Below the pieces are notes generated by a model, which made no database searches, was not told the origin of the DNA, and saw only the letters and a program-made list of their open reading frames with translations. A DNA stretch of 64,000 bases from a virus (Duplodnaviria > Caudoviricetes), in IMG/VR virus record IMGVR_UViG_3300021087_001082, positions 12,820 through 76,819 of that record. One strand, given 5' to 3'. The position numbers and the translations under genes are program-made. This document shows positions 508 through 63,755 of this stretch, one piece after another; within the stretch, counting starts at the first letter, position 1; every line of letters starts with the position of its first letter.

Positions 508-592
508 GGGGAGGCTGTGCAATGGTGAGCTCAACAGACTGTAAATCTGCCGTCTTTCGACTGTGATGGTTCGACTCCATCCCTCCCCACCA
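508..592 (+). tRNA. tRNA-Tyr(GTA)
   Basis: Acceptor GGGGAGG/CCTCCCC, anticodon loop CTGTAAA, long variable arm, T arm GATGG-TTCGACT-CCATC, A73 and encoded CCA. Confidence 0.93.
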
Positions 593-7391: not shown

Positions 7392-8084
7392 GTGATACAT
7401 GTATTCGGTGATTCATATTGTGATCCTCTCAATGGAAAGGGTGGAGGAATATCATCAGAAAAAAGGTGGTTCAATCTTTTAGACGAGCCTTCATTTGTTT
7501 TTGGTTTAGCGGGTTCTAGTATTGATTGGTCTTTGAATGTTTTTCTTGAAGGGCATAGGCATAGAGAAGGCAAAGTAATTTTTATTGAATCTATTCCAAG
7601 AAGATTTCATTTTGAGTTCTTACAATATCCCGGCCATGCAGGTGCGGTTCTATTTGATGATATGAAAGAGTGGGAAAATGATAAATGGCTTTCATCACCA
7701 CAAATGATATACCTTAATCAACATAAAAAGTTTATAGAATATTTTCATATAAATTATAAGGACTATCATAAAGCAACAAAAACAAGATGTACGTTAAAAG
7801 CTTTATCCGATCAATATGAGAAGGTCATTTACTTTGCCACATCACATAATAGAAATTTATATGCCCCTGCGGAAATAGAAAATACAGAAAAATTTATTAT
7901 ACCTGACATAACATTAATGGATATATCTCGAGCAGAGATAAAGAACGATTATGATCCTTCATTTAAAGATTGGAGATCAAATCATTTTACAGAAGAGAAT
8001 CATATAAATTTATCATCTTATATAAAGAGATTGTTTAATAATGAACCTGTGAATGATATAATATTTAATAAGAATGTGATATGA
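7392..8084 (+). CDS. SGNH/GDSL-like protein
   Basis: N-terminal VFGDSY, G.AGSS and C-terminal D...NH motifs. Confidence 0.55.
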   Translation: MIHVFGDSYCDPLNGKGGGISSEKRWFNLLDEPSFVFGLAGSSIDWSLNVFLEGHRHREGKVIFIESIPRRFHFEFLQYPGHAGAVLFDDMKEWENDKWLSSPQMIYLNQHKKFIEYFHINYKDYHKATKTRCTLKALSDQYEKVIYFATSHNRNLYAPAEIENTEKFIIPDITLMDISRAEIKNDYDPSFKDWRSNHFTEENHINLSSYIKRLFNNEPVNDIIFNKNVI

Positions 8085-9529
8085 TATATTGGGGTATTAC
8101 TTGTGGATCACATGACGGTGCTTTAGCTGTTTATGATAGTGCGAAACAAGAGGTTCTATTTGCAACCGACGCTGAAAGATTCTCTAGAAAAAAGAACGAT
8201 CCTCAAATACCTTTAAGCTTGTTAGATTATGTGAGAGAAGAATATGATGTCCCGGATAAAATTTATTTTTATGAGGATCCTCGTATAAAGATTTCTCGAA
8301 GATGGTATGCTGGACAGAAGCCAGCTTGGAAACCACCTGTGTTACCACATCCTTATAATACTAAACATTATAAGATGAAGTATACCTCGCATCATAGGTC
8401 ACATGCGACATATGGTTATTATACATCTCCTTTTACTGAATGTATGATATTATGTATTGATGCTATAGGAGAATGGGAAACATTAACTACTTGGTACGTT
8501 AAAGATCATAAATTTAAAAAATTATGGAACTGGAAATATCCTAAGTCTTTAGGATTAATGTATTCAGCATTGACACAGTACTCAGGTTGGAAACCCAATG
8601 AAGAAGAATATATTATGATGGGGGCTGCTGCTAGACAATCATATCCATATGATGTAGTAGTAAATAGAATTAGAGATTGTTGGGAAACAAAAAATATAAC
8701 CTGGCATAAAGGATGTAATAATATTCCAGAGTGGAATGTGAAACCAGAAATACATCCTCAGGATGTACCTACTGCTGCACAACATGTTTATGAAGAAGAG
8801 TTTCGTAAAGTATTAGGCCTATTAAGTCAACATAAGTTAAATAATGGAAATATAGTATTCGTGGGAGGATGTGCTTTAAATGTTAGTGCCAATAGATTTT
8901 TATCTGATTATTTTTCTAATATCTATATACCAGCTAATCCAGGTGACTCTGGATCTGCTATTGGATGTATTCTTGCAAGAACAAGAAACCATATTAGTCC
9001 TACTCCTTATCTTGGTTATGATATACAAGGACCGTATCCGTCCAAAGAAATAATTGAACACTTGATGATCGATCGAGTGGTTGGAGTAGCAAACGGAAAA
9101 TGCGAATTCGGACCACGTGCTTTAGGTAATAGAACACTCTTCGGAGATCCTACTGATAAAAAAATAAAACAAAAAATAAATGAAACAAAGGGTAGAGAAC
9201 AGTTCAGACCTTTTGCTCCGATGATATTACCTGAAGACGTGGCACAGTATTTTAATGGTGGATTTCATTCACCTTATATGAGTTGCGCATTATCAGCAAC
9301 AGAAGAATTTAAACAGAAATATCCTGGTGTTGTTCATTTAGATGGAACATCAAGATTACAAGTTGTTGATTCAGAACCTCATATAACATTATTAAAAATT
9401 TGGAAGGAGATAACAGGATGTCCTGTATTATTAAACACTTCCTTAAATGTAAAGGGACAACCAATTGTCAACACAAGAGAAGAAGCCGAAGCTTTCACTA
9501 AGAGAACAGGTGTTACTGTTCTTTCTTAA
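8081..9529 (+). CDS. carbamoyltransferase (NodU/CmcH family)
   Basis: HD, ERFSRKK, HHRSHA, DAIGE, GGCALN, EFGPRALGNR, FRPFAP and LLNTSLN motifs. Confidence 0.93.
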   Translation: MIYWGITCGSHDGALAVYDSAKQEVLFATDAERFSRKKNDPQIPLSLLDYVREEYDVPDKIYFYEDPRIKISRRWYAGQKPAWKPPVLPHPYNTKHYKMKYTSHHRSHATYGYYTSPFTECMILCIDAIGEWETLTTWYVKDHKFKKLWNWKYPKSLGLMYSALTQYSGWKPNEEEYIMMGAAARQSYPYDVVVNRIRDCWETKNITWHKGCNNIPEWNVKPEIHPQDVPTAAQHVYEEEFRKVLGLLSQHKLNNGNIVFVGGCALNVSANRFLSDYFSNIYIPANPGDSGSAIGCILARTRNHISPTPYLGYDIQGPYPSKEIIEHLMIDRVVGVANGKCEFGPRALGNRTLFGDPTDKKIKQKINETKGREQFRPFAPMILPEDVAQYFNGGFHSPYMSCALSATEEFKQKYPGVVHLDGTSRLQVVDSEPHITLLKIWKEITGCPVLLNTSLNVKGQPIVNTREEAEAFTKRTGVTVLS

Positions 9530-10071: not shown

Positions 10072-10945
10072 TGCTGGTGTAAGCCAAGCAGGTCTCCTTA
10101 ATAAAGCAGGTGGATTTAATGCCTGGAAAGGTTGGCCTCGTCAATTAGCAAAGAAATTTCCTCAACATGAGATTCATCTATTTGCATCGCCAGGAGGTGG
10201 ACAGAATAATATGGAAGCTGCTTTGAGGACTTGCCTTGTTGAAGATTATGAAATGGTGATCCTTCAATTTACAACACAACGTCAAATGTATCCTTTGACA
10301 ATAGAAAGAAAATCAAAGAAGTATGATGGGTCATTAGATTCATGGTTCTATGCAGGTAATAGAGAAAACTTCTTTCTACATCAACAAAGGATGAAATGTC
10401 TTTCTATAAAGAATTATGTATTAGAACGAAAATGTGTTAAGGTCGGCCCCCATTGGGATAACCGTATGGGATTAGATCTTGATGGTACAAAAGTAAATAC
10501 AAATGAATTACCCCAAGTTATATTAGATGCTCTTATAGATAATGAATACTTTAATGAGATGGCAGAGACATTTTATAATTGTCGAAATATGTATAAGAAA
10601 TTATTTAAATATTTTTTCTCTATGTTATGGGTGCCTACTTATAAGCACGGTCCAACTAATAGCGATCAAGCTTTAATCGAGGTAGAAGGAAAGGTCCCGG
10701 TTTTTGTGGAAGAGTTTTTAACTGGTAAAGAATTAACAGACCAGGTGGATTGGAAAATAACTATATATGATTGGTTAGTTAAACATTATTCAAAAACAAA
10801 AAATATATCTCATCAAGATGCTAATAGAATTATATTTCATGAGTATAGAAAACACAAAGGACATTTAGGGGAAAAGCAACAACATGAAGTTTTAAATCAA
10901 TATTTACTTGCTAATGGAGAATTTTACGGAGCTTTAGATGGATAA
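10040..10945 (+). CDS. SGNH-like protein
   Basis: N-terminal IIGCSHS, ASPGGG and a C-terminal His motif. Confidence 0.5.
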   Translation: MKVGIIGCSHSAGVSQAGLLNKAGGFNAWKGWPRQLAKKFPQHEIHLFASPGGGQNNMEAALRTCLVEDYEMVILQFTTQRQMYPLTIERKSKKYDGSLDSWFYAGNRENFFLHQQRMKCLSIKNYVLERKCVKVGPHWDNRMGLDLDGTKVNTNELPQVILDALIDNEYFNEMAETFYNCRNMYKKLFKYFFSMLWVPTYKHGPTNSDQALIEVEGKVPVFVEEFLTGKELTDQVDWKITIYDWLVKHYSKTKNISHQDANRIIFHEYRKHKGHLGEKQQHEVLNQYLLANGEFYGALDG

Positions 10946-12188
10946 ACATCTACAGTTCTTAAATCATAGTTCATTATTATTAACTACATCTAAAACTAAA
11001 ATCCTATGTGATCCTTGGTTTAAAGGGACAGCTTTTAGTGATGGGTGGTCATTATTATACGATGAGTCTCATAACATCAATGAGTTAGACTTTGACTATA
11101 TTTGGATGTCACATGAACACCCTGATCACTTTTCAATACCCACATTACGAGAACTGAACAAAAGTTGTACTTTTCTTTTTCAAGAAACAAAAGATAAGAA
11201 AGTAAAAAAGTATCTTGAAGAAAAAGGTCATTTAGTAATAGAGCTTAAGAATAAAGAAGAAACAAAAATTGGTGACTTAAAGATTACATCTATTGTATGT
11301 GATGGCTTTGATTCAAGCCTGTTAGTAAAATATCCTGATGATAAGGTTTTACTAAACATTAATGATGCAATGGTATTAGATGATATAGAAGTTGATAAAG
11401 TTGATTTACTTACATTTCAGTATAGCTATGCAAATTGGGCTGGTAATAAAGGTGATAAAAAAATACCTAAGTATCTTCAGAGTATAATAGATAGTAAGAA
11501 TGATAAGGCAATAGCAAAGTTTAAACCAACTGCTATTATGCCATTTGCGAGTTTTGTATATTTTTCTCATGAAGAAAATTTTTACTGGAATGACAATAAT
11601 TGGATAGATCATGTGTTTAACAAATATTTATTTAATGAATCTTTTCTAATATTCCCTAAACCAGATCAATCAATATCATTAAACAATCTTGAGAAAACAC
11701 ATTATGATCTGTCTGCTTGTGCATTTTGGAAAGACAAATATAAGAATCTAATTATAAAAGATAAAGTTAAGCCACTATCTTTAGATCAAATTGAAGATTG
11801 TTATTTGAAGTTCAATAAAAAACTAAATCAAGAAAATACTATTGATAGTGATCTCTCATTAAATATAAAAATTAATGACCTAGATAAGATTATTAAGGTT
11901 GGATTAGTAGAGACCTCATTTGAAGTAGTTGATGAAGAAGAGACGATTAGTGTCTCATCTGAAACCGCAGGCTTCTTATTTTCTCAATTATTTGCAAGAG
12001 GTACAGTATGTGTTAATTCAAGAGTGTCTTTTAATTATAAAACAGCACACAAATTCTTTTTGTTCTTTTTTATACCTTATGCAAACAATATTGGAAAATA
12101 TTTTAAACAGTTTCCAAAAGATGCATATACATCAATAATGAAAACATCAGTAATGAGTGCAATTAATGGAAGTGATAACCTCGTATGA
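10938..12188 (+). CDS. metallo-beta-lactamase-fold protein (UlaG/CMP-NeuAc hydroxylase-like)
   Basis: NHSS, CDPWF.G.AF, SHEHPDH and PFASF motifs. Confidence 0.8.
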   Translation: MDKHLQFLNHSSLLLTTSKTKILCDPWFKGTAFSDGWSLLYDESHNINELDFDYIWMSHEHPDHFSIPTLRELNKSCTFLFQETKDKKVKKYLEEKGHLVIELKNKEETKIGDLKITSIVCDGFDSSLLVKYPDDKVLLNINDAMVLDDIEVDKVDLLTFQYSYANWAGNKGDKKIPKYLQSIIDSKNDKAIAKFKPTAIMPFASFVYFSHEENFYWNDNNWIDHVFNKYLFNESFLIFPKPDQSISLNNLEKTHYDLSACAFWKDKYKNLIIKDKVKPLSLDQIEDCYLKFNKKLNQENTIDSDLSLNIKINDLDKIIKVGLVETSFEVVDEEETISVSSETAGFLFSQLFARGTVCVNSRVSFNYKTAHKFFLFFFIPYANNIGKYFKQFPKDAYTSIMKTSVMSAINGSDNLV

Positions 12189-12241
12189 AAAAAAAACATA
12201 GACAACTTTATGATTCATGGAAATATAAAAAAGGAGGCTTA

Positions 12242-12679
12242 ATGGAATTTAATAATCCCATTTTTCAGACCCTATTAGGGTTAGTGATTTTTTACATTGG
12301 TTTAAAAATGTTTTCGGGTGGAATGAAAAGCATGGGTAAGTTAGAACACCTTGAAGTCTTTCTTGGAAATCCTTACTATATGTTTATTGGTGGTATTGTG
12401 ATGACTCTTTTGTGGCAATCTTCATCACTCTCTACTACTGCAATTATCGGATTGGTCGCGAGTGGCGCACTTCCTCTCCCCGCAGCAATCGGTGCAGTTC
12501 TTGGAGCTAACATCGGAACGACAGGTACTATATGGTTAGCAGGGATAATGGTTTCTGATGGAATGCCTCAAGGAATAACAAAACAGGTAGCCATGGTCCA
12601 TACAGGAGTCAACCTGTTCATGGCAGTTCTCTTGTTACCATTTGCTCAACATATAGCTAGGTTTATATCAAGATTCTGA
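12242..12679 (+). CDS. half-size Na+/Pi cotransporter family protein
   Basis: QSSS and GANIGTT signatures, hydrophobic; AAGGAGG RBS favours ATG 12242. Confidence 0.85.
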   Translation: MEFNNPIFQTLLGLVIFYIGLKMFSGGMKSMGKLEHLEVFLGNPYYMFIGGIVMTLLWQSSSLSTTAIIGLVASGALPLPAAIGAVLGANIGTTGTIWLAGIMVSDGMPQGITKQVAMVHTGVNLFMAVLLLPFAQHIARFISRF

Positions 12680-12702
12680 TAAATAAATCTTTACATTGGA
12701 AT

Positions 12703-12795
12703 TGGCTCTGGGGGTTGGATTCGAACCAACACGCCCCTCTGCAAAAGGGACAATACGTAAACAACGCATCACGTCTACCGTTTCGTCACCCCAGA
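12703..12795 (-). tRNA. atypical tRNA-Asn(GTT) with long variable arm
   Basis: TCTGGGG/CCCCAGA acceptor, G73, CCA; D arm ACG-AAACGGTAGA-CGT; anticodon arm ATGCG-TTGTTTA-CGTAT; 22-nt variable region; T arm GTTGG-TTCGAAT-CCAAC. Confidence 0.85.
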
Positions 12796-13013
12796 GTCCG
12801 TTCTTTTATAAGATGTCCCATTTGATGCTCTGCAAGCGCATCAAGGTCTGTATATGTTTCGTCGCATTCGAAGCAACTAGCAAATCCATTTTTCTTATAA
12901 AAGTTTTCTTCATCTATCATTTCTCTTGCTTGCCTTTGTAGCTCATTTATCACGTCGTGTATTCCATGTCCACCTGGGTAGATCGGAAATACTTTATTGC
13001 TACTTTTAGGCAT
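12786..13013 (-). CDS. small C2H2 zinc-finger-like protein
   Basis: CFECDETYTDLDALAEHQMGH (CxxC-x12-HxxxH); start overlaps the upstream stop. Confidence 0.65.
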   Translation of the reverse strand: MPKSSNKVFPIYPGGHGIHDVINELQRQAREMIDEENFYKKNGFASCFECDETYTDLDALAEHQMGHLIKERTLG

Positions 13014-13885
13014 TACATAAGTCCTGCTCTTTTCATTCCACTAATAAGTCTCGTCATTCCTATTCCACCTCCAAACCTAGGTCTGAAGTCATGCCCCAGA
13101 AATTCATCAAGTTCTGCTTCTACTCTTTCTTCACCGAATAGATCATACAATAAACTGGCATACCCACCATCTGATATTGTATGGAATTGTTTCCTCATTT
13201 CATCAACATCGGTTGCACGTTCAGCACTACCGATTGTTTCCATGCCACCAATAATAACATCGCATTTATTAGCAAGGCTGGCAGTTTTTTTCACATCTTG
13301 TTGACCAAGTTTCATGTTCCAGAAAGGACTTGTTGATTCCGGAAAATGGGTTAAAAAGAATACATCTCCATATTCTTGATACATTTCTTCTTCATGGCCA
13401 GCATCTAATTCTTCACCAGTATATTTTGCTAATACACTTTGATACATGCCACCCGGAAAATCTAAATCTTTATATGGAGCTCTTCCATGATCACAATGAA
13501 ATCCTAAATGAATTAATAAATCATTTTCCAGTTTTAATAATTCTTCAAAGTCGCCAGGAGCTTCAAATTCAAACATTGGGAAGATTAGTTCATGTCTTCC
13601 TTCTATTGAATTTTGTTCTTGCCTGTAACTTGTGCTAACACAATAACAACCTGGCAGATCAGGTTTAGTTAACAATTCATATTCTAACCACATTTGCCCT
13701 GTTTGTGGTAATGGCCATATTTGACCATTATAATTATAGGTAGCAACTGTAGTGGGATCTTCGCATGCGGCGAGGATTGATAATCTGCTTTGGGTATGTA
13801 CTTCTTGAAAATTACGTGAGGAAAAAAAGGAACGGAGTTGTGAGACTACATTAGTGAAATCGGTTGGATCGATTAAACTAGTTAT
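13013..13885 (-). CDS. class IIb aaRS catalytic-core protein (AsnRS/AsnA-like), no anticodon-binding domain, ATA start
   Basis: Motif 1 (LRSFFSSRNFQEVHT), motif 2 (SYRQE...RH...FPMFEFE), motif 3 (GGGIGMTRL); frame open 64 codons upstream of the tracked ATG, to an ATA behind AAGGAGG. Confidence 0.85.
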   Translation of the reverse strand: MTSLIDPTDFTNVVSQLRSFFSSRNFQEVHTQSRLSILAACEDPTTVATYNYNGQIWPLPQTGQMWLEYELLTKPDLPGCYCVSTSYRQEQNSIEGRHELIFPMFEFEAPGDFEELLKLENDLLIHLGFHCDHGRAPYKDLDFPGGMYQSVLAKYTGEELDAGHEEEMYQEYGDVFFLTHFPESTSPFWNMKLGQQDVKKTASLANKCDVIIGGMETIGSAERATDVDEMRKQFHTISDGGYASLLYDLFGEERVEAELDEFLGHDFRPRFGGGIGMTRLISGMKRAGLM

Positions 13886-13940
13886 AATACCCTCCTTTGA
13901 TAATTAAAATGTTAACCTCCTTTTATTTCACAAATCTTAA

Positions 13941-13948
13941 TATTTATA
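13941..13948 (-). promoter_or_regulatory. T4-type late promoter TATAAATA
   Basis: TATTTATA on the + strand, upstream of the minus-strand aaRS-like operon. Confidence 0.7.
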
Positions 13949-13994
13949 GAATCTCTTTATTCAACAAAATTTCTAAATAATCATAGGAGGAAGT

Positions 13995-14600
13995 ATGGTA
14001 ACATATTCACATTTATCAATGATTGCTTTTGTGATATTAGGTTTATCTATGGTGAGATTAATGATTAACTATAGTTCATTAGTTGCTAAAAATTTTAATG
14101 ATAGTCCAGATGATGATGTTGTGTTTTATTGGCCACATACGGCAATGAGTTTTATAACTTTTTTTACTATTATATTATTTTGGTGGACTTCTTATCCACT
14201 GAGAGATGTGAATTATTTTCCAAACGAAGGATGGAATTTATTTACATTTTTATTATATCTTTCAGTACCATTCTTATTTTTTATGGTTACTGAAGTGATC
14301 GCTCCACAAATTGAAGAACATAGAACGAAGGAAGTTAATTTAAAAGATTATTATTATAATAATCATAAGGTCATATTAGGGTTGGCAGTAATGTTACAAT
14401 GCGTTCTGCTCGCAAATCTTTTTGTATTCTTTAAAGGAGAATTGCTATCATTGAAAGTGATAGGCAGAGTCATATTGATTTGTGTCATGACTCCAATGAT
14501 ATTCAGTATCAATAAAAGATTACATGAAATTGGTATGACAATATTTTTTCTAGGATTCATCTATACCATAATAAAGTATCATATCTATCCAGTGATATAA
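13995..14600 (+). CDS. multi-pass membrane protein
   Basis: About six hydrophobic segments; AGGAGG RBS. Confidence 0.7.
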   Translation: MVTYSHLSMIAFVILGLSMVRLMINYSSLVAKNFNDSPDDDVVFYWPHTAMSFITFFTIILFWWTSYPLRDVNYFPNEGWNLFTFLLYLSVPFLFFMVTEVIAPQIEEHRTKEVNLKDYYYNNHKVILGLAVMLQCVLLANLFVFFKGELLSLKVIGRVILICVMTPMIFSINKRLHEIGMTIFFLGFIYTIIKYHIYPVI

Positions 14601-26548: not shown

Positions 26549-27046
26549 ATGAATAAATTATGGTACACTTGGCAGGAAATGTGTCTTGATGTTAATCAAC
26601 TCTGTAGAGAGATTACATTAGATAACTTTACGCCGGACGTGATCGTGGGTTTAAGTAGGGGAGGTCTAACGCCTGGCGTTATGATGTCTCATTGGTTAAA
26701 AAAACCTTTTAAGCCCGTGAAGAGCTCTCTTAGAGATTTTCCAGAATGGGAAGATTATCTTCCTAGAAAATCAGATGAGAGGGTTTTAATAGTAGATGAC
26801 ATATGCGATAGTGGTGAAACGTTTGAACGTATATCATCTTTTATTAAGGGCCCAAGAAAGGATCAGCCCTTAGAAATCAGTTGTGATGTAAAATTTGCAT
26901 CCCTCTGGTGGAATAATGAAGTTAAATTCGAACCTCATTATTACGTAAGGGAGGTAGCAAAAGATACCGAGAATCTCTGGATTCATTTTCCATGGGAATC
27001 ATGGTGGTCTGCGCCTCTTACTTTTCAAAACAATTTAAAAGGATAA
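26549..27046 (+). CDS. purine phosphoribosyltransferase (Gpt/Hpt-like)
   Basis: GLSRGG, PRPP motif VLIVDDICDSGET, WIHFPWE. Confidence 0.88.
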   Translation: MNKLWYTWQEMCLDVNQLCREITLDNFTPDVIVGLSRGGLTPGVMMSHWLKKPFKPVKSSLRDFPEWEDYLPRKSDERVLIVDDICDSGETFERISSFIKGPRKDQPLEISCDVKFASLWWNNEVKFEPHYYVREVAKDTENLWIHFPWESWWSAPLTFQNNLKG

Positions 27047-60615: not shown

Positions 60616-61373
60616 CTCAAGTCTTAATTACGGGCGTTAAAGGGTTCATCGGGCATCATCTATACAATTCATTAATGGATGAGGGATATGACGTCCAAGG
60701 GATTGATGATCGCTCCGGTTTAGGCTGGGAAGACAGGGTAGTCCCTTATTCTCATTGTGATATCACTAATGACCCTTTACCTTATAATAATGTGGAATAC
60801 GTTATTCACTTAGCCGCAAAAGCAGGTGTTCGTAAAAGTTGGGACCCAAAATATTTAAAAGATTATTGTGATACGAATATAAAAGGTACTGCCCGCATTT
60901 TTAATCATTATAAAAATTCTAAAATATTATATGCATCAAGTTCTTCCGTTAAAGATATGAAAAGTCCTTATGCAATGACAAAAGCTGCCGGTGAAGCCAT
61001 GGCTCCTAATAATGCTATAGGAATGAGATTCTTTACAGTATGGGGCGAGCGCTCACGTCCTGATATGTTTTACAGACAACTCCAACAAAAAGAAATAGGA
61101 TATCTAACAACCCATACTAGAGATTGGTGTCATGTAGATGATGTTTGTAATGCTATTAAATTATTAATGGAAAATTTTAAAGTTTGGAAAAAGAAACTAC
61201 CAGTTTATGAAATTGGATATGGGAGTCCAATGTCTGTATATGATTTTGCAACAACACATGCTCCTGAAGGATTTGACGTGGAAGCATTACCATTTAAAAA
61301 TGTAACCGGTGAGTCCGAAGAAACATGTGCTGATTCTTCTCCTTTAAAGGCGCTTGGCTGGAATGTTATGTAG
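60606..61373 (+). CDS. NAD-dependent epimerase/dehydratase
   Basis: TGVKGFIG, HLAA.AGVR, ASSSS and YAMTK motifs. Confidence 0.9.
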   Translation: MEMTQVLITGVKGFIGHHLYNSLMDEGYDVQGIDDRSGLGWEDRVVPYSHCDITNDPLPYNNVEYVIHLAAKAGVRKSWDPKYLKDYCDTNIKGTARIFNHYKNSKILYASSSSVKDMKSPYAMTKAAGEAMAPNNAIGMRFFTVWGERSRPDMFYRQLQQKEIGYLTTHTRDWCHVDDVCNAIKLLMENFKVWKKKLPVYEIGYGSPMSVYDFATTHAPEGFDVEALPFKNVTGESEETCADSSPLKALGWNVM

Positions 61374-62511
61374 TTACCCTTACAAGCAAATCGCCTTAAA
61401 AGATTGGGACGGCGATAAATTAAAGTGGTCTCATCCTTGCTGTAATATGTCTCGCCCGGAATGGGAAGATCCAATGGGAATGCAGGACATAGATAAATTA
61501 ACCCCCCCTGAAATATTTGAATCAGAACAATTTAAGTTGTTGCGAGATGATTTTGATAATAATCGCAAGAATGATTTTTGTAAAACTTGTTGGAATATGG
61601 AAGAAAGGAATATTGAACCTTTTTATATTCATAATGATGATATAATTCCTAAAGGACAATTAGATTCAATTGATTTTACCTTATCTAATAAATGTAATTT
61701 AGCTTGTAGAATGTGTGATCCACAAACAAGTCATAGGTTAATGTTAGATTGGAAGTTTTTCAAAGACAATGGGTTAATTAAAGATATTGAAAATATAACA
61801 GCTGGTAAATTTAGAGAAGAATTAAATATACCAAATGTAAAAAATTCGATTCAATATAAATGGCTTTTAAATAATCCAGTAAAGGAATTAAGATTTAGTG
61901 GTGGTGAACCATTTTTTGATTCATTAATAATAGATTTATTGGATAAATATATTAAAGAAGGTTGGGCAAAAGATACTATCTTAGCGTATCATACTAATGG
62001 AACCTTATTTAACAATGAACTTATTGATAAGTTAAATCAATTCAAAAAGCAGTACCCTAAAATTAGTATAGATTCAATAGAAGAAGGATATGACTATATA
62101 CGTCATCCTGCCAGTTTTGATGATTTAGATAAAACCGTTCGTTTATTTTTAAATAATTCTACTAATTTGGGTAGAATTAATATTGCTGTTGTTATTTCTG
62201 CTTTAAATATCTTAGACCTTCATAATCATTGGTCATGGTGTTGTACCTTACCTAAAAAAGTTTTTGTTTCATATTGTGAAGTATATCCTGATAATAGGGG
62301 CATCAGCCCTAAGAATTTGAGTAGAGCTTTATTAAATGAGTTGCCTTACATAGATTCTAGAAAACATCAGCAAATAATTCAATCTTATAAAATACGAAAC
62401 GTTGAAAGGAAAGAATCGGTTAAAAAAGAAATAGAATTATTCGATATGTCTAGATCCCAAAGTTATAAAAATTATTTACATCCTCATTTAGTATCATGGT
62501 TAGATTCGTAG
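61363..62511 (+). CDS. radical SAM protein with N-terminal SPASM/twitch-like domain
   Basis: CNLACRMC, GGEP and TNGT; N-terminal C..P, PCC and C..CW. Confidence 0.88.
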   Translation: MLCSYPYKQIALKDWDGDKLKWSHPCCNMSRPEWEDPMGMQDIDKLTPPEIFESEQFKLLRDDFDNNRKNDFCKTCWNMEERNIEPFYIHNDDIIPKGQLDSIDFTLSNKCNLACRMCDPQTSHRLMLDWKFFKDNGLIKDIENITAGKFREELNIPNVKNSIQYKWLLNNPVKELRFSGGEPFFDSLIIDLLDKYIKEGWAKDTILAYHTNGTLFNNELIDKLNQFKKQYPKISIDSIEEGYDYIRHPASFDDLDKTVRLFLNNSTNLGRINIAVVISALNILDLHNHWSWCCTLPKKVFVSYCEVYPDNRGISPKNLSRALLNELPYIDSRKHQQIIQSYKIRNVERKESVKKEIELFDMSRSQSYKNYLHPHLVSWLDS

Positions 62512-63755
62512 TAGTTGGTGGAGGCGCCGCAGGATGGATTACATCTCATTATCTAAAAAGAAATTTAGATTGTGAATTAACAGTTGTCCATAAAAAAGAA
62601 AATGAAATTATAGGTGTAGGAGAATCAACAACACCTACTATTTTAAAAGTTATAGAAGATGTTAAGTCGTGGCAAGAAGATAGCAAAGCTCTTATTAAGT
62701 ATGGAATAAAATTTAACAATTGGCTAAGACCGAATAGTGAATGGTATCATTTATTTGAGGATGCTTTTATAAAAGATGGTGTTGATTCTATTGAATTTTT
62801 GAGAAATGAACATCCTAAAATTGATACTACTACATTTAATTATTATCACGGCGATTTTTTAGTTAGATGTAAAAATAATATAATAGATACAGAAAATAAT
62901 TCAATTCCAGGATATGGATTTCAAGTACAGGCAGATAAATTGGGGCTTGCTTGTAAAAATGAATTGGAAGGTAAATATAGGTTAATTGAAGAAGATGTTA
63001 CCACTGTTCTTTCAGATAAAAATGGAATACGTTCTATCGGAACAGAAAACCATATACTACACGCAGACTATTTTATAGATTGTTCCGGATTTGAAAGAAT
63101 ATTGATTAATAGGTTATCATCTTTTGAACCTTATGAAGATATGATAGCCAATTCGTATATTGTTGGTAGATTAGATAAACATAAAAAAAGACCTTATACA
63201 GTAACAACTGCATTAAAAAATGGTTGGCGATGGGAGATAGATACTCAAGATAGAACGAACGCCGGTTATGTTTATTGTGATCATTTAACAAGTCATGAAA
63301 AGGCAATGGAGGAATCAGGTATAGAAGGAGAAAAGAAAAGTTTTGTATCTGGTAAAATGAAGGATATTGCAATTAAAAATTGTATTAGTAATGGCTTAGC
63401 ACAGAGCTTTATTGAACCGTTGGAAGCAACATCATTAATGATGACTTGTTATACAGTTGAAAAATTCGTTGAAATTATTAAGAGAGGTAAAAGAATAGAA
63501 ACTCTTAATAAAATTATGGATAAATTTTTAAAGCACACCAAAGAATTTGTAAAATATCATTATATATTAAGTGAAAGAAAAGATTCAGAATGGTGGGAAT
63601 ATTGGACAGAACAGAAAAATGATATACAAGATTTTTTCGAACGCTCATTAAAGAATAAACGATATTGTAAGAAAAATGATACATTATTAAATCATTATAA
63701 TATAGCTTCAATGATGGTAGGCTATGAATGCTTAACAGAAAGAAAAAGAATATGA
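62496..63755 (+). CDS. tryptophan halogenase-family flavoprotein
   Basis: GGGAAGW, GVGEST, IDCSGF, W.WEI and FIEPLEAT motifs. Confidence 0.88.
   Translation: MVRFVVVGGGAAGWITSHYLKRNLDCELTVVHKKENEIIGVGESTTPTILKVIEDVKSWQEDSKALIKYGIKFNNWLRPNSEWYHLFEDAFIKDGVDSIEFLRNEHPKIDTTTFNYYHGDFLVRCKNNIIDTENNSIPGYGFQVQADKLGLACKNELEGKYRLIEEDVTTVLSDKNGIRSIGTENHILHADYFIDCSGFERILINRLSSFEPYEDMIANSYIVGRLDKHKKRPYTVTTALKNGWRWEIDTQDRTNAGYVYCDHLTSHEKAMEESGIEGEKKSFVSGKMKDIAIKNCISNGLAQSFIEPLEATSLMMTCYTVEKFVEIIKRGKRIETLNKIMDKFLKHTKEFVKYHYILSERKDSEWWEYWTEQKNDIQDFFERSLKNKRYCKKNDTLLNHYNIASMMVGYECLTERKRI

Follow-up and report, generated by a model that had tools for sequence, protein, structure and literature searches.

The window analysed here, a 64,000-nucleotide (nt) stretch of viral DNA, is part of a 76.8-kb IMG/VR entry (IMGVR_UViG_3300021087_001082, positions 12,820 to 76,819) that is estimated to be 44% complete. 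Its source is a marine T4-like myophage with 34% GC, and it codes for a gp43 polymerase, a clamp and clamp loader, RegA, UvsX, homologues of gp41 and gp61, NrdA and thymidylate synthase. The plus strand holds 63 of the 66 open reading frames (ORFs) of at least 120 amino acids (aa). On the minus strand, against this prevailing gene direction, lies a compact cassette (Table 1) that was picked out in an earlier note made from the sequence alone, and every element was found where that note had placed it: a putative promoter motif; a class IIb aminoacyl-tRNA synthetase core of 290 codons, referred to here as X; a 75-aa ORF whose ATG overlaps the TAA of X by 1 nt; and a tRNA gene with anticodon GUU, which shares its first 10 nt with the 3' end of the small ORF.

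The octamer upstream of X matches what we take to be the T4-type late-promoter consensus; it is not enriched across the window (5 occurrences observed against 11.25 expected), but in 17 of 52 distinct tRNA-linked loci it recurs no more than 150 nt ahead of X. Judging by this motif, the cassette is probably driven by a late promoter. RNA-library contigs (12704-12881 and 12730-12884) span the tRNA and the small ORF, and X is also covered, which is compatible with a single transcript without proving transcription; contig cover in the three RNA runs is limited to 12694-13821 and is no guide to transcript ends.

Table 1. Positions of the cassette elements, of other genes in the window and of genes at other loci (locus handle before the colon)
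Feature	Position	Strand	Remarks
Octamer TATAAATA, putative late promoter	13941-13948	-	53 nt upstream of the proposed ATA start
Shine-Dalgarno-like AAAGGAGG	13891-13898	-	5 nt before ATA 13885
X, class IIb synthetase core	13013-13885	-	290 codons, proposed ATA start, TAA stop; Pfam, homologues
75-aa accessory ORF	12786-13013	-	N-terminal peptide and C2H2-type zinc finger; ORF reading, Pfam, alignment
tRNA-Asn-like RNA, anticodon GUU	12703-12795	-	93 nt; ARAGORN, Rfam
Second Shine-Dalgarno-like AAAGGAGG	within 13879-13925	-	upstream of the first
Very short out-of-frame ORF	within 13879-13925	-	stops at TAG within the first codons of X
Na+/Pi-cotransporter ORF, fragment-like	12185-12679	+	164 aa; PF02690, E 3.9e-17
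Metallo-beta-lactamase (MBL)-fold ORF	about 10938-12188	+	416 aa
NodU/Nol-like carbamoyltransferase	8081-9526		phrog_1601, E 4.5e-82
Phosphoribosyltransferase (PRTase) ORF	26549-27043		the only PRTase in the window
Radical-SAM protein	61354-62508		auxiliary gene
Tryptophan-halogenase-like protein	62496-63752		auxiliary gene
tRNA-Tyr	508-592		
Canonical tRNA-Asn(GUU)	C1:1306-1380 (L098:1306-1380)		75 nt, loop CUGUUAA; same viral record, outside the window
Cassette tRNA with anticodon GUC	L052:3868-3966		
RimK-like ATP-grasp ligase	L004:3440-4999		huge phage LR756501
Dihydroorotate dehydrogenase and X	L103:2853-4744		neighbouring ORFs, giant-virus contig
DusB-like genes	L243:1803-2825, L197:1170-2177, L228:1839-2816, L184:1866-2825		Patescibacteria
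Amidohydrolase and argininosuccinate lyase before X	L198:634-2931		Patescibacteria

The cassette enzyme

The reading frame of X is open from 13903 to the TAA at 13015-13013, and no ATG, GTG or TTG occurs in it before 13693, so that gene callers give a 226-aa product (P0030) that lacks motif 1. The 290-aa product requires a start at ATA 13885 (or ATT 13888). The N-terminus is placed at this codon because homologues begin exactly there, their first residues (MTQLIDP or MTTQLIDP) aligning to ATT-ATA-ACT-AGT-TTA-ATC-GAT-CCA in the window; a DNA contig from a separate run is identical to the window across 13403-14000, and the ATA is therefore genuine and not a read error.

X matches the Pfam family tRNA-synt_2 (D/K/N; PF00152) with 66.6 bits (cut-off 25, E 2.6e-18) over residues 18-288 of the read-through, and this nearly full-length match leaves no room for an N-terminal OB domain. 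It also matches phrog_29758 ('unknown function') over profile positions 1-265 of 267 (E 8.5e-103). Scores against models of named enzymes fall far below their cut-offs: for canonical asparaginyl-tRNA synthetase (AsnRS; TIGR00457 / NF003037), NF003037 gives X 30.1 bits against a cut-off of 414, NCBIfam asnS-type cut-offs being 342-414; for non-discriminating aspartyl-tRNA synthetase (ND-AspRS), the NCBIfam model gives 32 bits against 353; for EpmA/GenX, TIGR00462 gives 17.7 bits against 286.9; and for archaeal asparagine synthetase A, the PRK06462 models give 14.2 bits against an equivalog cut-off of 389. An AlphaFold (AF2) model of X made from a 47-sequence alignment (predicted local distance difference test (pLDDT) 87.6, predicted TM-score (pTM) 0.89) has the catalytic cores of AspRS and AsnRS as its best Foldseek matches (E ~1e-17, query TM-score (TMq) ~0.7). 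The best match of the family profile is AsnRS 2xgt (E 5.6e-11), followed by AspRS entries at 1e-9 to 1e-6; PDB entry 3p8t, the archaeal AsnRS-like asparagine synthetase, is matched only at E 3.3e-4.

In the 47 sequences, from phages and giant viruses, the class IIb motif blocks, which include YRQE..GRH and GGGIG.TR, are invariant. An invariant P-Q-T-G-Q-M-W-L-E of X aligns to T-Q-S-S-Q-L-Y-L-E of AsnRS, where AspRS has Q-S-P-Q-L-Y-K-Q; the Lys of AspRS presumably binds the side-chain carboxylate of the substrate, and we take Leu in its place to be typical of AsnRS. From these residues, the active site of X is predicted to be complete for class IIb, with a pocket motif of the AsnRS type. Pfam, the family profile, the pocket motif and Foldseek thus agree with the earlier note in describing a core-only, AsnRS-like class IIb enzyme. 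Compared with AsnRS (PDB 2xgt, 1x54, 9sh8), which provides its best sequence and fold matches, X has the same catalytic fold and motif blocks (Foldseek TMq 0.71) and shares the pocket Q-x-x-L-E, but it lacks the N-terminal OB anticodon-binding domain, and a strongly conserved N-terminal block, HTQNRLSILAACEDP, is its own. A search of the ESM Atlas with X gave matches limited to the family's own clusters, and a literature search, which did not cover the supplements of Sullivan et al., found no functional study of X. A table in Sullivan et al. 2010 (PMC3037559) lists the gene as 'tRNA ligase' (T4-GC 194).

Linkage of X to a tRNA-Asn-like RNA

ARAGORN predicts the window tRNA as a 93-nt molecule with an encoded CCA and the anticodon GTT, and with Rfam tRNA (RF00005) it reaches 41.6 bits, above the gathering score of 29. 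Its anticodon loop is UUGUUUA, with U at position 37; its first pair is U1-A72 and its discriminator G73; and its variable region holds an insertion of ~21 nt. Among 35 relatives, from which a covariance model (R1) was built, RNAalifold recovers the cloverleaf with compensatory changes in 17 of 20 predicted pairs, and U1-A72 is invariant (35/35). Members of the family are 77-111 nt long, and their D-arm resembles that of type II tRNAs; phage tRNA-Leu genes reach 61-63 bits with R1.

Relatives of X were gathered from viral sequences, in which 596 of 598 matched stretches were confirmed and 80 kept, and from nine INPHARED records (P-SSM2, P-SSM5, P-SSM7 and three huge-phage assemblies), which contributed five loci to a total of 85. 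An R1 tRNA (at least 65.8 bits) lies directly downstream of X on the same strand in 67 of the 85 viral loci. Among the loci without it, three (L033, L042, L046) are on contigs that end within 210 nt of the gene, two (L004, L005) are from huge phages, and 13 group with giant viruses, several of them with a nucleocytoplasmic large DNA virus (NCLDV) capsid, capping enzyme and topoisomerase II. R1 found no family tRNA in LR756501 or LR756508, the two huge phages, whether genome-wide (default filters) or at the loci (filters off), and its best matches there are tRNA-Leu and others at no more than 61 bits. The distance from the stop codon of X to the tRNA is at most 18 nt, or the two overlap, in 32 of the 67 loci and is 43-226 nt in the remainder, in 21 of which a small ORF intervenes, the window type included. 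The linkage of enzyme and tRNA is real. At the tRNA-less locus of LR756501 (735 kb), X is followed directly by a gene for a RimK-like ATP-grasp ligase.

A tree of 145 X sequences (quick IQ-TREE; SH-like approximate likelihood-ratio (SH-aLRT) support only) contains a phage clade of 61 rows (support 86), of which 56 have the tRNA, two are at contig ends and three are contigs of metagenome-assembled genomes (MAGs) without it; a Patescibacteria clade of 47 rows (support 97), all cellular; and a mixed clade of 35 rows (support 91) with giant viruses, Bacteroidota, Proteobacteria and a few members of the candidate phyla radiation (CPR). From this distribution, the tRNA partnership is a trait of the phage clade. 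Its surroundings differ from phage to phage: gp23 and gp3 flank the cassette in P-SSM7, a lipase adjoins it in P-SSM2, and in the window its neighbours are a Na/Pi-cotransporter fragment and a membrane ORF. Given these differing neighbourhoods, the cassette moves as a unit.

Across 52 aligned members of the tRNA family, position 34 is G and position 35 is U in all, position 36 is U in 51, and G73 is invariant; CCA is encoded throughout except in the three P-SSM phages. The single C at position 36 (L052) makes a GUC (Asp) anticodon in a tRNA whose nearest relatives (L055, L071) have GUU and whose partner enzyme is almost unchanged. The flanks of the anticodon are looser, with 39 U, 9 G and 4 A at position 37 and 42 U, 7 C, 2 A and 1 G at position 33. 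The variable region spans ~5 to ~39 nt and shifts between the sister enzymes L044 (79-nt tRNA) and L045 (92-nt tRNA); because it varies in this way it is not a conserved identity element, contrary to the earlier note, by which X may charge the tRNA through its acceptor stem and variable arm.

Decoding tRNAs have U33 and a purine at position 37. The window tRNA, with GUU followed by U37, does not have the U33...purine-37 loop of an elongator tRNA-Asn, and a canonical tRNA-Asn(GUU) is encoded in the same viral record; genes for tRNA-Asp, Val, Gly, Cys and Tyr are also present upstream of or at the window start. U37, the non-U33 loops and the canonical tRNA-Asn together argue that the cassette RNA is not a decoder. 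The pattern of conservation indicates that selection keeps the features read by proteins (anticodon bases, discriminator, first pair and elbow) and not those needed for decoding, for which this RNA, by its sequence, is not built.

These observations bear on the proposal that X is a minimal AsnRS which charges the cassette tRNA via its acceptor stem, so that the ribosome reads AAY independently of host AsnRS or GatCAB. The complete class IIb motifs and AsnRS-type pocket motif of X would suit such an enzyme, as would its tight linkage to a tRNA with strict GUU, G73 and U1-A72, as in bacterial tRNA-Asn; AAY codons are expected to be frequent in a phage genome of 34% GC, and 13 of the 52 tRNAs do have a purine at position 37 (A37 in 4, G37 in 9). 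However, U37 is found in 39 of 52 and a base other than U33 in 10 of 52, and the genome already has its canonical tRNA-Asn. Beside an enzyme without an anticodon domain, moreover, an invariant anticodon makes sense only for decoding, yet its loop context is not decoder-like, and family members elsewhere have no such tRNA and stand beside PyrD or PyrF. The orthogonal supply of Asn-tRNA for translation envisaged in the earlier note therefore fits poorly, and we consider it unlikely.

The small ORF between X and the tRNA carries the pattern C-X2-C-X12-H-X3-H, which is conserved among the finger-bearing alignment rows; Pfam zf-C2H2 (PF00096) gives 19 bits for the window ORF (cut-off 25.2, E 0.0019) and 23.9 bits for one relative. 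Its N-terminal peptide follows the pattern IPIY-x-GG/NG-x-GIH...ELQRQA. Peptide and finger occur together in 8 of the 67 tRNA-linked loci, plus the window; the finger occurs alone in 5, the peptide alone in 10 as ORFs and in 3 more by tblastn, and neither is present in 41. Thus the expectation that homologues of X would be accompanied by both the tRNA and the zinc finger is borne out for the tRNA, within the phage clade, and fails for the finger, which occurs in 13 of the 67 loci and is absent from P-SSM2, P-SSM5 and P-SSM7; this rules out an obligatory subunit, and a general role as a tRNA-binding subunit in trans is likewise abandoned. Three predictions of a complex between X and the small protein scored 0.54, 0.41 and 0.54 (best control 0.01), sharing at least 85% of contacts with a small-protein pLDDT of at least 71; of 157 solved complexes, 18 score in this range (up to 0.60), as do the two mismatches that passed. 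The models suggest that the small protein may be an accessory partner of X; it is not a defining part of the cassette.

The X family and pyrimidine genes

At 50% clustering the X family has 167 representatives (E <=1e-30). One of them, P0127, is a fusion of a class-1A dihydroorotate (DHO) dehydrogenase with X (297.8 bits to the 'dihydroorotate oxidase' equivalog, cut-off 301); another, P0136, is a fusion of X with orotidine monophosphate (OMP) decarboxylase (PyrF); and 9 of 11 longer relatives of X carry DHO_dh and X. Fusion or adjacency of DHO dehydrogenase and X recurs on giant-virus-type contigs (P0127, P0274-P0280, P0283 and L103). When 185,579 species genomes were scanned, 414 of 491 stretches were confirmed, and the best 80 of these 414 cellular loci are mostly from Patescibacteria and Saprospiraceae/Chitinophagales, with some proteobacterial MAGs, at 52-61% identity. 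The family tRNA is present in only 5 of these best 80, all of them marine MAG contigs inside the phage clade.

In Aureispira (L183) X follows PyrD, and a gene for a bifunctional orotate phosphoribosyltransferase/OMP decarboxylase (OPRT/OMPdc) adjoins divergently on the opposite strand; PyrD adjoins X at L183, L205 and L211 but not at L215, the fourth locus examined. An MBL gene stands between PyrD and X in Aureispira L211, and an MBL partner common to this locus and the window was considered and dropped, the resemblance being a metal motif only (BLASTP E 1.9). Among 61 genomes of one bacterial order, X is present in 3, and pyrB, the gene for aspartate carbamoyltransferase, is over its cut-off in none of these 3 compared with 53 of the 58 without X (one-sided Fisher p = 56/35990 = 0.0016, ignoring phylogeny). 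Among five X-bearing Saprospiraceae-type or proteobacterial genomes, none has pyrB over the cut-off and four have no match at all, the controls giving 14/14; the X-bearing genomes without pyrB (G006-G010, G031, G041) are Saprospiraceae-type and other MAGs. In a set that overlaps this test (G006-G008, G010, G031), carB, for carbamoyl-phosphate synthetase, is over its cut-off in two of five, and in G006-G010 PyrC-like genes are kept in four of five (186-262 bits). The possibility that X is an ATP-dependent analogue of dihydroorotase, converting carbamoyl-aspartate to DHO, is less likely, since PyrB is absent but PyrC-like genes are kept.

Such contexts are also to be expected if X works in every lineage as a metabolic ligase that needs no tRNA, either an AsnA-like amide synthetase or an enzyme feeding dihydroorotate or carbamoyl-aspartate, with the adjacent tRNA as a co-selected helper and not a substrate: an extra acceptor for host tRNA-dependent Asn synthesis, a synthetase decoy, or an element for processing or stability of the mRNA 3' end. 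The tRNA-less homologues of giant viruses, Patescibacteria and Bacteroidota are 55-60% identical to X and have the same invariant active-site blocks, and its fusions to PyrD or PyrF, like the lack of PyrB in X-bearing genomes, point the same way. A model is offered by archaeal AS-AR (3p8t), an asparagine synthetase with a core of ~290 aa, and by AsnA, both core-only class II enzymes like X, which form an Asp/Asn-type adenylate and then an amide; AS-AR is, however, distant from X by the profile and bit scores given above, and we know of no dedicated tRNA or PyrD fusion for either. Two features of the phage loci argue against a mere helper: phage tRNA genes otherwise occur in arrays, whereas the cassette tRNA keeps 5-10 nt behind X clade-wide, and its intact acceptor end, elbow and anticodon are under clear purifying selection, with compensatory changes, although a mere processing signal would not need them. 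On balance we think this improbable, to about the same degree as a translational role.

In five X-bearing Patescibacteria genomes gatB is over its cut-off in all and asnS in none, so that X as the sole route to Asn-tRNA in CPR bacteria is unsupported; three of the five have no DHO_dh at all. At L198, X follows genes for a PRK06886-type amidohydrolase and argininosuccinate lyase (322 bits, over the cut-off). A tRNA-Gln gene lies 0.1-2.7 kb from X in 12 of 23 CPR loci scanned; L210 has it on the opposite strand ahead of X, and in the other 11 it comes after X on the same strand. This may be plain synteny.

In 4 of 11 Patescibacteria loci examined the gene immediately preceding X encodes a DusB-like tRNA dihydrouridine synthase, as might be expected if X, in the manner of GluQRS, transferred an activated amino acid to an anticodon-loop nucleoside (e.g. 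position 34 or 37) and not to A76. Loss of the anticodon domain from an enzyme whose RNA conserves GUU and mostly U37 would fit a loop that enters the active site. GluQRS (YadB) and EpmA (GenX/PoxA) are synthetase paralogues without an anticodon domain whose aminoacylation target is not A76 of a decoding tRNA, GluQRS being a truncated class I glutamyl-tRNA synthetase (GluRS) that acts on tRNA-Asp. GluQRS is thus of another class than X; EpmA is of class IIb like X, but its target is EF-P and the TIGR00462 score of X is far below the cut-off; and neither is encoded with an RNA of its own. Furthermore, U33 is absent from 10 of the 52 RNAs, whereas queuosine insertion needs U33-G34-U35; the PyrD and PyrF fusions and the tRNA-less lineages would go unexplained; and the position of the Dus gene may reflect nothing more than conserved gene order. 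Modification of the anticodon loop by X therefore seems very improbable.

Possible roles of the enzyme and its RNA

The explanation that we favour, tentatively and with somewhat less than an even chance of being right, is that X and the cassette RNA are an enzyme and its RNA substrate with a metabolic output; it would reconcile the complete active site of X, the decoder-decayed tRNA and the pyrimidine contexts. The cassette would be a self-contained mobile phage unit consisting of X, an optional small protein and a dedicated RNA derived from tRNA-Asn. X would be an Asn/Asp-type adenylate-forming ligase, a class IIb core that has lost its anticodon-binding domain, and the RNA would have retained GUU, G73, U1-A72, CCA and the elbow while giving up U33 and purine 37. 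The two would work together at the acceptor end of the RNA by one of two routes: either X itself attaches Asn or Asp to the RNA through an ester bond, or host AsnRS or a non-discriminating AspRS loads the RNA by means of GUU and G73, and X then transforms the residue. The second route would account for an anticodon that is conserved beside an enzyme unable to read it, since the host synthetase would read GUU. The hosts here are cyanobacterial, and marine picocyanobacteria are not known to carry asnS. The output is taken to be metabolic and not decoding because of the PyrD and PyrF fusions and the occurrence of X where PyrB is missing. We infer from these patterns that the RNA is the substrate of X, and likewise which amino acids it may carry and what the product may be.

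Several observations weigh against this explanation. X is an acidic protein, the median pI of the tRNA-linked clade being 4.81, and its core has gained no RNA-binding domain; to our knowledge, none of its characterized core-only class IIb relatives (archaeal AS-AR, AsnA, EpmA) charges tRNA. The three MAG contigs without the tRNA lie within the phage clade itself, and the tRNA-less homologues mean that the chemistry of X may be tRNA-independent everywhere. The link to pyrimidines comes from other clades of X, no pyr gene being linked to X in the phage loci; the anticorrelation with pyrB comprises 3 + 4 genomes, partly related and MAGs; and the sole PRTase ORF of the window was rejected as a PyrE, being xanthine-PRT-like with 36 bits.

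Special tRNA/enzyme pairs, or transformation of a tRNA-bound residue, are known from PylRS-tRNAPyl, SepRS-tRNACys and the action of GatCAB on Asp-tRNAAsn. The X cassette resembles these systems in that a special tRNA is co-inherited with an enzyme acting, as we propose for X, at the acceptor end; but their tRNAs decode with regular loops, whereas the loop of the cassette RNA is non-canonical and the X family is otherwise tied to pyrimidine enzymes.

A bolder extension of the substrate-pair explanation, which we regard as a long shot, is that the X family represents an undescribed entry into the pyrimidine ring that bypasses carbamoyl phosphate and aspartate carbamoyltransferase and is tRNA-assisted in phages. 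An adenylate-forming enzyme derived from AsnRS would use Asp or Asn to build the N3-C4 amide and the ring of dihydroorotate. The residue would, in phages, be held as an ester on the non-decoding tRNA(GUU), loaded by host AsnRS or AspRS, with the tRNA as a handle and protecting group, as in the amidation of Asp-tRNAAsn; giant viruses would add a cytosolic class-1A PyrD through fusion. Viruses would in this way make orotate precursors outside the feedback-controlled first steps of the host.

The cassette enzyme is abundant: at least 596 viral stretches encode X, a protein search finds at least 8000 related clusters, and at least 14 marine DNA runs contain at least 89% of the sampled words of the locus, while databases still label X either 'tRNA ligase' or a protein of 'unknown function'. 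Should X act on the cassette RNA, the two would be a natural pair of synthetase core and tRNA that dispenses with anticodon reading; they would be a new case of a tRNA diverted from decoding and would give engineers an orthogonal pair that already exists. The family-wide association with PyrD and PyrF and the lack of PyrB, provided that they reflect the chemistry of X, point to an unrecognised route into pyrimidine synthesis. Such a route would serve phages and giant viruses as well as CPR bacteria and predatory Bacteroidota, and it would change the reading of viral auxiliary metabolism and of 'missing' pyr genes.

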